Shown here piece after piece: positions 41,803 to 42,219 of a stretch of 46,856 nucleotides of DNA. Every line of letters starts with the position of its first letter. The first letter of the stretch is position 1. The stretch lies in the sequence record PZ379178.1, one strand, 5' to 3'. Source of the DNA: a phage. Made by a program: the position numbers and the translations under genes. The notes below the pieces were generated by a model. That model searched no databases. It worked only from the letters and a program-made list of their open reading frames with translations, and was not told the DNA's origin.

Positions 41803-42219
41803 ATGAGTCACGTAATCACTGGTGTTATCCGTCGCGCTCCGTTCACCAAAGAAGGTCAGAATGCTAACGGAACATGGAAAATGTATGCAGTTGATTTAAG
41901 CGAGCGCTACAAGGACAAGGATGGTCAGGTACATTACAGTAACTATCGAGCTGTCTTCTTCGCAAAAGAATCAATGCTTGCATGGTACGATGAGGCATTT
42001 CAGGAAGGTAAAATCGTTAGCGTAAGTTGCGAGACGTTAGCATTAGATGTTCGAGATAAAGATGGTAAAACTTACGTAACCATTAACATGAACAACCCTA
42101 GACTTGAGTTTAGTCAGCGTGGCGAGGGCGGGAAGCAACAACAACAGCAACAGCAGCAACAGCAACAGCAGCAACAGCAACAGCAACAGCAGCAGTTTAA
42201 CGATGACATTCCGTTCTGA
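41803..42219 (+). CDS. ssb: Single-stranded DNA-binding protein with poly-Gln linker
   Basis: OB-fold-like N-domain, 20-Gln tract, acidic C-terminal tail ending DDIPF as in bacterial/phage SSBs. Confidence 0.75.
   Translation: MSHVITGVIRRAPFTKEGQNANGTWKMYAVDLSERYKDKDGQVHYSNYRAVFFAKESMLAWYDEAFQEGKIVSVSCETLALDVRDKDGKTYVTINMNNPRLEFSQRGEGGKQQQQQQQQQQQQQQQQQQQQFNDDIPF
42136..42195 (+). repeat. (CAR)20 trinucleotide repeat encoding poly-Gln in SSB
   Basis: 20 consecutive CAA/CAG codons in frame with SSB ORF. Confidence 0.9.

Follow-up and report, generated by a model that had tools for sequence, protein, structure and literature searches.

The binding protein for single-stranded DNA (ssDNA), abbreviated SSB, that is encoded in the phage DNA analyzed here (sequence record PZ379178.1; hereafter the window, meaning the whole stretch of 46,856 nucleotides) probably links phage ssDNA to host proteins through a divergent OB fold, a flexible glutamine-rich tether, and a C-terminal tip resembling that of the E. 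coli SSB (EcSSB), with an uninterrupted run of 20 glutamines (Q20) as an extreme outcome. We put the probability of this reading at roughly 0.78. The protein belongs, as one allele, to a phage protein family that is annotated already, and it is not a new system. As judged from the alleles compared, Q20 is an extreme allele of a Q-rich, fast-changing linker that occurs in the close relatives examined. The features on which this reading rests are listed in Table 1.

Table 1. Features of the SSB gene and its neighborhood, with positions in the window.
Feature	Position	Strand	Basis
PD-(D/E)XK exonuclease, RecE/exonuclease VIII-like	40070-41041	+	Pfam DUF3799, 1.6e-21; PHROG 412, 2.6e-102
Erf-family single-strand annealing protein	41112-41762	+	Pfam ERF (PF04404), 8e-28; PHROG 155
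SSB gene, 138 aa and TGA stop	41803-42219	+	ORF list and translation
OB-fold domain, putatively ssDNA-binding, residues 1-106	41803-42120	+	AlphaFold2, Foldseek, OB-only profile
Predicted disordered linker, residues 107-131 (GEGGK, then Q20)	42121-42195	+	pLDDT <50, residues 109-134
Q20 tract, residues Q112-Q131	42136-42195	+	9 CAA and 11 CAG codons
C-terminal tip FNDDIPF	42196-42216	+	Sequence
Bidirectional intrinsic terminator, separating the SSB gene from the convergent tail-fiber gene	42228-42247	Both	Terminator scan
Lateral tail-fiber gene, 852 aa, convergent	42250-44808	-	Annotation at homologous positions in relatives

Identity, fold, and tract of the SSB

The initial annotation had described an SSB-like ORF with an OB-fold-like N-domain, an acidic tip DDIPF, and a Q20 linker encoded by 60 nt of CAR repeat. 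The coordinates and composition given for the repeat were exact, and the TGA of the gene is directly followed by a second stop codon (TAA, 42220-42222). The protein matches PHROG 44 ("single strand DNA binding protein") with E=6.8e-29, and several of its 502 homologs are named ssDNA-binding protein in T1-like phages. A tblastn search with the N-domain found it in 1061 phage records, and the sequence family is narrow: clustering at 50% identity gives it only 60 clusters out of 1.84 billion representatives. The Pfam SSB model (PF00436) does not match the window protein at its gathering score, and only one of 44 family members reaches E=0.0079 against that model. A single-sequence phmmer search of the window protein against the PDB likewise returned only noise.

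A profile built from the 44 family sequences matched the SSB of K. pneumoniae (2.9e-12), EcSSB (3.8e-9), and the yeast mitochondrial SSB RIM1 (2e-5). Much of the score against EcSSB came from the tail, and the profile was rebuilt from the OB domain alone. This OB-only profile retained the RIM1 match (7.4e-5), and its hhalign alignment to the EcSSB core was weak (probability 31%, E=5e-4). With the 44-sequence alignment as input, AlphaFold2 predicted a beta-barrel with one helix across residues 1-100 (block-mean pLDDT 93-98), in which the strand-helix-strand order is that of the SSB-type OB fold. This model replaced one made from the single sequence, which had a pLDDT of 62 and showed the polyQ as a helix of low confidence. 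Nearly all of the best 50 Foldseek matches in the PDB were bacterial, phage, or organellar SSBs or PriB, with a probability of 1.0 and a best E of 1.7e-5. The two profiles, the AlphaFold2 model, and Foldseek thus agree with the OB-fold-like N-domain of the initial annotation. We conclude that the window protein is a divergent member of the SSB-fold family.

In EcSSB, the aromatic residues W40, W54, F60, and W88 stack on ssDNA. Y36, Y48, and F53 of the window protein are aligned with W40, W54, and F60, respectively, and the position of W88 is occupied by a non-aromatic residue, all in an alignment of low confidence. Within the SSB family, N47-Y48 is invariant, and F53 is near-invariant.

The protein ends in FNDDIPF, so the acidic tip had been read correctly and is EcSSB-like. 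The tip directly abuts the stop codon, which leaves a free C-terminal carboxylate on an acidic tip of the D-I-P-F type. The family profile aligns FNDDIPF with the final residues of EcSSB and of the K. pneumoniae SSB. The family pattern for this segment is F-x-x-D-I-P-F, and F132, I136, P137, and F138 are near-invariant among family members.

At the DNA level, the Q20 tract is a mixture of CAA and CAG and not a pure trinucleotide microsatellite. Its longest unbroken run of either codon is three units, and Tandem Repeats Finder reported periods of 6, 15, and 21. The CAA share is 45% in the tract vs. 38% in the long ORFs of the window. Such codon mixing would dampen classic triplet slippage. Among amino acid homopolymers of at least nine residues in any sense frame of the window, Q20 stands alone when its own mirror frames are set aside, which excludes chance as its source. 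Two hidden ORFs that overlap the tract, one poly-Leu (42043-42186, minus strand) and one poly-Ser/Asn (42104-42229, plus strand, +2 frame), were rejected as mirror images of the repeat without support.

Linker variation and the origin of Q20

The allele set contains about 185 close alleles, and 121 linkers were measured for length and composition. In addition to cluster representatives, alleles were taken from IMG/VR (scanned with the N-domain only), metagenomes (gathered with a family-wide 17-mer), GenBank phages, and within-cluster members. A common plan was found in 120/120 of the closest cluster representatives: PRLEFSQR, a G-rich start, a Q-rich stretch, and F-x-x-D-I-P-F. All of the approximately 185 close alleles have a Q-rich linker, and CAA and CAG are mixed in every one of them. 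Among the 121 measured linkers, length ranges from 21 to 34 aa (median 27; 25 in the window) and Q content from 48 to 80% (median 62%), the window having the maximum seen (80%). The longest pure Q run is 3-11 in the cluster representatives and 3-14 over the approximately 185 alleles, compared with 20 in the window. The tracts of the relatives are broken by P, K, R, or H and hardly ever by E or L, and proline, which is missing from the window linker, is kept in 119 of the 121 (absent in only two). The window linker is of low complexity, the homologous linkers are hypervariable, and model confidence is low across this segment (Table 1), all as found for a disordered linker. The window linker is therefore unusual only in its purity and its lack of proline, and its length is ordinary; Q-richness as such is shared with the close relatives and is not peculiar to this phage.

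The residues that interrupt the tracts are informative about selection. Of the non-Q residues in the linker core, 83% are one-nucleotide neighbors of the CAA/CAG codons, with counts of 211 for P, 129 for K, 118 for R, and 78 for H vs. 4 for E and 6 for L (these counts are not phylogenetically independent). That these CAR neighbors are so unequally common, although equivalent transversions lead to them, points to selection against residues that are acidic or hydrophobic. In the close relatives, selection appears to act on linker composition only, keeping the segment Q-rich, free of acidic and hydrophobic residues, and about 21-34 residues long. The GGWGQPQQPQ motif of the EcSSB linker recurs in more distant members of the family, as does the ending PPMDFDDDIPF, from which the phage SSB tail looks homologous to that of the host. 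In the subfamily of the window, this host-like tail looks to have been reduced to near-pure Q.

The initial annotation had suggested that the tract could tune partner recruitment or phase behavior. In such an alternative, the pure polyQ may be an adaptive tuning device, in which Q-Q (amide-amide) self-association of the tails would increase cooperativity on ssDNA or promote condensates, giving foci of phage replication or recombination, and in which purity and length would both be selected. The composition and length of the EcSSB linker set non-nearest-neighbor cooperativity and phase separation, and amide-amide contacts of G, Q, and N have been proposed as drivers of this control (PMC12143593; bioRxiv 10.1101/2022.01.17.476650). 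The maintenance of Q-richness through many synonymous CAA/CAG changes and filtered substitutions also implies selection on composition. However, the main role proposed for EcSSB is that of Gly backbone amides, with a possible contribution of Q/N side chains, and of the R116/W136 stickers, and the N/Q-rich tail of PfSSB does not phase separate (PMC12143593; bioRxiv 10.1101/2022.01.17.476650). Since aromatic residues are absent from the window linker and Gly occurs in it only three times, EcSSB-like behavior cannot simply be assumed for it. Furthermore, the interrupted tracts of the approximately 185 relatives, with at most 14 consecutive Q, argue against general selection for purity, and the linkers normally keep their prolines. 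We therefore regard such a tuning device as unlikely. It is also quite unlikely, in our estimate, that the Q-rich tail forms cooperative assemblies or condensates of its own on ssDNA, apart from the host SSB, that concentrate host SSB-interacting proteins and Erf on the DNA of the phage, with purity setting their material state. If this were true, polyQ length would be a fast-evolving dial for a viral replication/recombination compartment in a bacterium.

The sequence of the linker changes rapidly. The mean normalized edit distance is 0.375 for the linker vs. 0.082 for the OB domain, such that the linker diverges four to five times faster. Repeat length varies across isolates, as the initial annotation had anticipated, and it does so by single Q codons or small units in near-identical homologs. 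Otherwise identical tails differ as Q8/Q9/Q10 (P0206, P0026, and P0201), Q10/Q11 (P0025 and P0028), and Q7/Q11 (P0016 and P0032); a last run is Q3 in one and Q5 in the other of P0096 and P0217; and a PQQ unit is duplicated between P0083 and P0216. The slippage-prone character that the initial annotation gave to the repeat would be lessened by the mixed codons. Among 43 near-identical vB_EcoS records, only one match length was found, and the longest Q run there is only 4; the tract can thus be stable on short time scales. In addition, in eight of the 11 groups of proteins with identical OB domains, the linkers and tips are combined in entirely different ways, a sign that recombination is a further process at work. 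Taken together, linker drift would involve point changes to the one-nucleotide neighbors of CAR codons (P, K, R, and H), in-frame slippage or small duplications, and recombination. A hypermutable simple-sequence contingency locus, in which length changes of a long perfect repeat would turn the gene on and off, was considered and rejected, given that perfect CAA/CAG runs are short and nearly all length variants stay in frame and keep the tip. The exceptions are the alleles with an HNH-like extension (see below) and two alleles (P0200 and P0215) that are truncated or apparently frameshifted.

For Q20 itself, the nearest allele (P0001; 96% identity, on a contig of 46,875 bp) is exactly like the window over the 5' 273 nt and over the first seven Q codons and then continues as P-Q6-R-Q-P-Q5, with CCT, CGA, and CCG interruptions that are missing in the window. 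Within the Q20 tract, there is an exact self-match of 27 nt (nine codons) at an offset of 15 nt, which 886 of 20,000 codon shuffles also reach (p about 0.04). The most likely route is that a pure 15-nt unit, CAACAGCAACAGCAG, was duplicated and the interrupted segment deleted, by which the total linker length would have stayed normal; the periodicity weakly supports such duplication with loss of the interrupted segment. Because the 3' end of the SSB gene lies at a mosaic boundary, an import of Q20 by recombination is equally possible. In our best reading, slippage or duplication gave rise to Q20.

Among 153 billion recorded gene positions, none has the exact 138-aa product, and a flank-anchored pattern of the lineage of the window, with variable tract length allowed, had no match in metagenome contigs. 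Both results are what would be expected if the uninterrupted Q20 were an assembly or sequencing artifact of a normally interrupted tract. Nevertheless, the 60-nt tract is below ordinary read size, it leads in frame into an intact tip, its CAA/CAG pattern is non-degenerate, and runs of Q12 and Q14 at the same position in independent assemblies demonstrate that long pure runs do occur. An artifact is accordingly extremely improbable.

Genome context and the mosaic boundary

The window matches the Escherichia phages ES, AN_ECEAS, phiA2-1, TR2, DTL, and JeanPiccard, all of which are Drexlerviridae and, wherever the record states a subfamily, Braunvirinae. These matches place the window as the genome of a T1-like Drexlerviridae (Braunvirinae) coliphage. 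The SSB gene is the last gene of an exonuclease-Erf-SSB module, of which the exonuclease is the first. The Erf gene lies immediately upstream of the SSB gene; its mechanical ORF start is a GTG at 41070, and its homologs were called at 216 aa in two related sequences (L001 and L002). The position of the SSB gene after Erf is conserved in L001, L002, L017-L023, and L082, as expected for a Drexlerviridae SSB of PHROG 44. In JeanPiccard/Bas02, the annotated order is exonuclease VIII, Erf, and SSB, then tail fiber, primase, and helicase, and the same gene order has been described for TLS and T1 (PMC11447400). In the record of phage ES (OR466728.1), the labels appear shifted or mistaken, in that the SSB ortholog is called "terminase small subunit," and "head morphogenesis protein" is given for the Erf ortholog.

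The phage encodes a primase and helicases. In T1 and TLS, a DNA polymerase gene is not apparent (PMC11447400), and we found no polymerase domain in the 20 of the largest ORFs of the window that were scanned, including all six of at least 500 aa. These six encode two helicase-type proteins, the terminase, the tape measure, the tail tip, and the tail fiber.

One helicase gene, which wraps around the ends of the window (46434-46856, continuing at 1-2715, plus strand), contains an intein that breaks it immediately past motif II, between ..VIAIDE and CLTGDTMI.. (block B TSTH). The reading frame of the N-terminal half ends at about nt 388. An ORF for a LAGLIDADG endonuclease (219-1073) occupies a different frame from that half, and a further ORF with an ATG start (1006-2715) begins with the intein C-terminal motif (..VWDIEMPEHHNFIADGVVAHN followed by C) and continues into Helicase_C. 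Phages ES and AN_ECEAS have the same layout at 99.7% identity, recorded there as two CDS and an unannotated gap. The locus reads like a "fractured gene," that is, split-intein halves with a putative free-standing homing endonuclease between them.

Other features of the window include a single tRNA-Arg (anticodon CCT; 16075-16150, plus strand) just upstream of the small terminase gene; at the equivalent place in JeanPiccard, a tRNA-Arg is annotated for AGA. Against Rfam, the whole window matched a tRNA and nothing else. Short perfect trinucleotide repeats are present as (TAT)6 at 11737-11754 and (TTA)5 at 39532-39547, the latter lying upstream of the recombination module, where an AT-rich stretch between genes contains promoter-like hexamers.

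Compared with its otherwise closest relative (L001), the window is near-identical from 39476 to about 42170, except for a divergent patch in erf. Past this point, the Q tract, the tip codons, and the terminator differ, and the tail-fiber gene is unrelated, such that the mosaic boundary starts in or just after the Q tract. Over 42170-44500, the tail-fiber gene of the window is wholly unlike that of L001. This difference is a host-range cassette swap with its left boundary at the SSB 3' end and the terminator. The terminator at 42228-42247 is kept in L001 and L082.

The location of this boundary raises the possibility that the CAR-rich DNA, which all alleles share, and not the protein, is what matters. 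Where the conserved module borders on the variable tail-fiber cassette, this DNA would offer microhomology for mosaic exchange mediated by Erf. Besides the end of near-identity within the tract, the unlike linker and tip combinations on identical OB domains would fit such exchange. On the other hand, the breakpoint test at the tract is underpowered, with one informative genome pair, and the conserved terminator could equally well be the junction. The substitution bias at the amino acid level shows that the protein sequence is under selection regardless, and we consider a role of the DNA alone very improbable.

A different kind of change at the SSB 3' end was observed in L082, a Logan contig (SRR4242136), in which a Cys/His-rich ORF of 142 aa is inserted exactly at the SSB stop codon (1921-2404). 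This ORF contains an HNH-like motif (..VAHHDDYSKPL..WLCQACHMQWH..), with the like seen in relation to P0006, P0066, P0125, and P0195, and it has no match in Pfam. The SSB ORF with this insertion runs on for 19 more codons (..DIPFASLGLQYGKHRIYAL), and the terminal carboxylate of the tip is thereby buried. The conservation of this extension even in a homolog that is only 45% identical in the OB domain suggests a homing element aimed at the SSB 3' end.

Proposed role and comparison with known systems

In our preferred reading of a divergent OB fold, a Q-rich tether, and a host-like tip, the OB domain would coat ssDNA produced by the phage exonuclease, the helicases, and replication, as in established SSB biology, and the protein would form tetramers. 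The most economical reading of the linker is a flexible, hydrophilic, almost uncharged, and non-acidic tether. The tip would dock the ssDNA-bound phage SSB onto Pol III chi, PriA, RecQ, ExoI, and other proteins of the host, and probably, or at least maybe, onto the Erf of the phage as well. We infer the docking onto host SSB-interacting proteins from the presence of a primase and helicases with no DNA polymerase gene. The pocket of Pol III chi binds the terminal Pro-Phe and the carboxylate of the SSB tip (as summarized in PMC3561973). As for the recombination module, removal of the SSB from a phage-derived recombinase-exonuclease-SSB operon lowered recombination efficiency to 25% of the original (PMC13543080).

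These findings bear on how T1-like phages, which lack a polymerase, link ssDNA intermediates of their own with the replisome and repair machinery of E. coli, as they must. With the host tip copied and the host linker swapped for near-pure glutamine, the window SSB amounts to a natural experiment that asks which properties an SSB linker has to have. The approximately 185 natural alleles, which range from Q3-interrupted to Q20-pure, form a ready series for models of how the linker drives SSB cooperativity and condensation. Recombineering may be a further use for the exonuclease-Erf-SSB cassette.

Among known systems, EcSSB (PDB 1EQQ/1EYG; PF00436) shares the OB fold, the disordered Q/P/G-rich linker, and the acidic ...DDIPF tip. 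The window protein is shorter (138 vs. 178 aa), and its OB domain is too divergent for the Pfam SSB model. Its linker has 25 aa vs. about 56 in EcSSB and is 80% Q, without an aromatic residue or proline. The last seven residues (FNDDIPF vs. FDDDIPF) are equal except for a change from D to N at the first Asp.

The SSBs of T1-like phages (PHROG 44; e.g., JeanPiccard Bas02 gp33, phiA2-1 GP31, TR2, and TLS Gp54) are orthologs with 82-96% identity. They occupy the same slot after Erf and before the convergent tail fiber and have the same Q-rich linker and tip. Their linkers, however, are interrupted by P, K, R, and H, with Q runs of 3-14, whereas that of the window is Q20 and proline-free.

A direct precedent for the tip is G36P of SPP1, a phage SSB with a host-like tip that has two of the three acidic residues, as in the window SSB, from a phage that has its own helicase system and uses host polymerases (PMC3561973). 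The window SSB is only remotely related to EcSSB, whereas G36P, at 48% identity to the host SsbA, counts among the canonical members of the family and has no polyQ linker.

T7 gp2.5, likewise a phage SSB, combines an OB fold with a C-terminal tail that is acidic, ends in Phe, and recruits partners. It differs from the window SSB in that it belongs to another OB family, is not of the tetramer type, recruits the polymerase of the phage itself, and has no Q-rich linker. A role of the window SSB as a trigger of Retron-Eco8/DARNA was considered and rejected, given that the triggers of those systems are the gp2.5-type SSBs of T7, SECphi4, T4, and T5.

Finally, eukaryotic polyglutamine proteins also have homopolymeric Q within a disordered segment, and there too the codons are a mixture of CAA and CAG. 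In contrast to these proteins, the window has no pure CAG microsatellite, and no expansion dynamics were seen beyond 1-4 codons. The expansion and aggregation thresholds of eukaryotic polyQ are about 35-40 Q, and the Q20 of the window lies below them.
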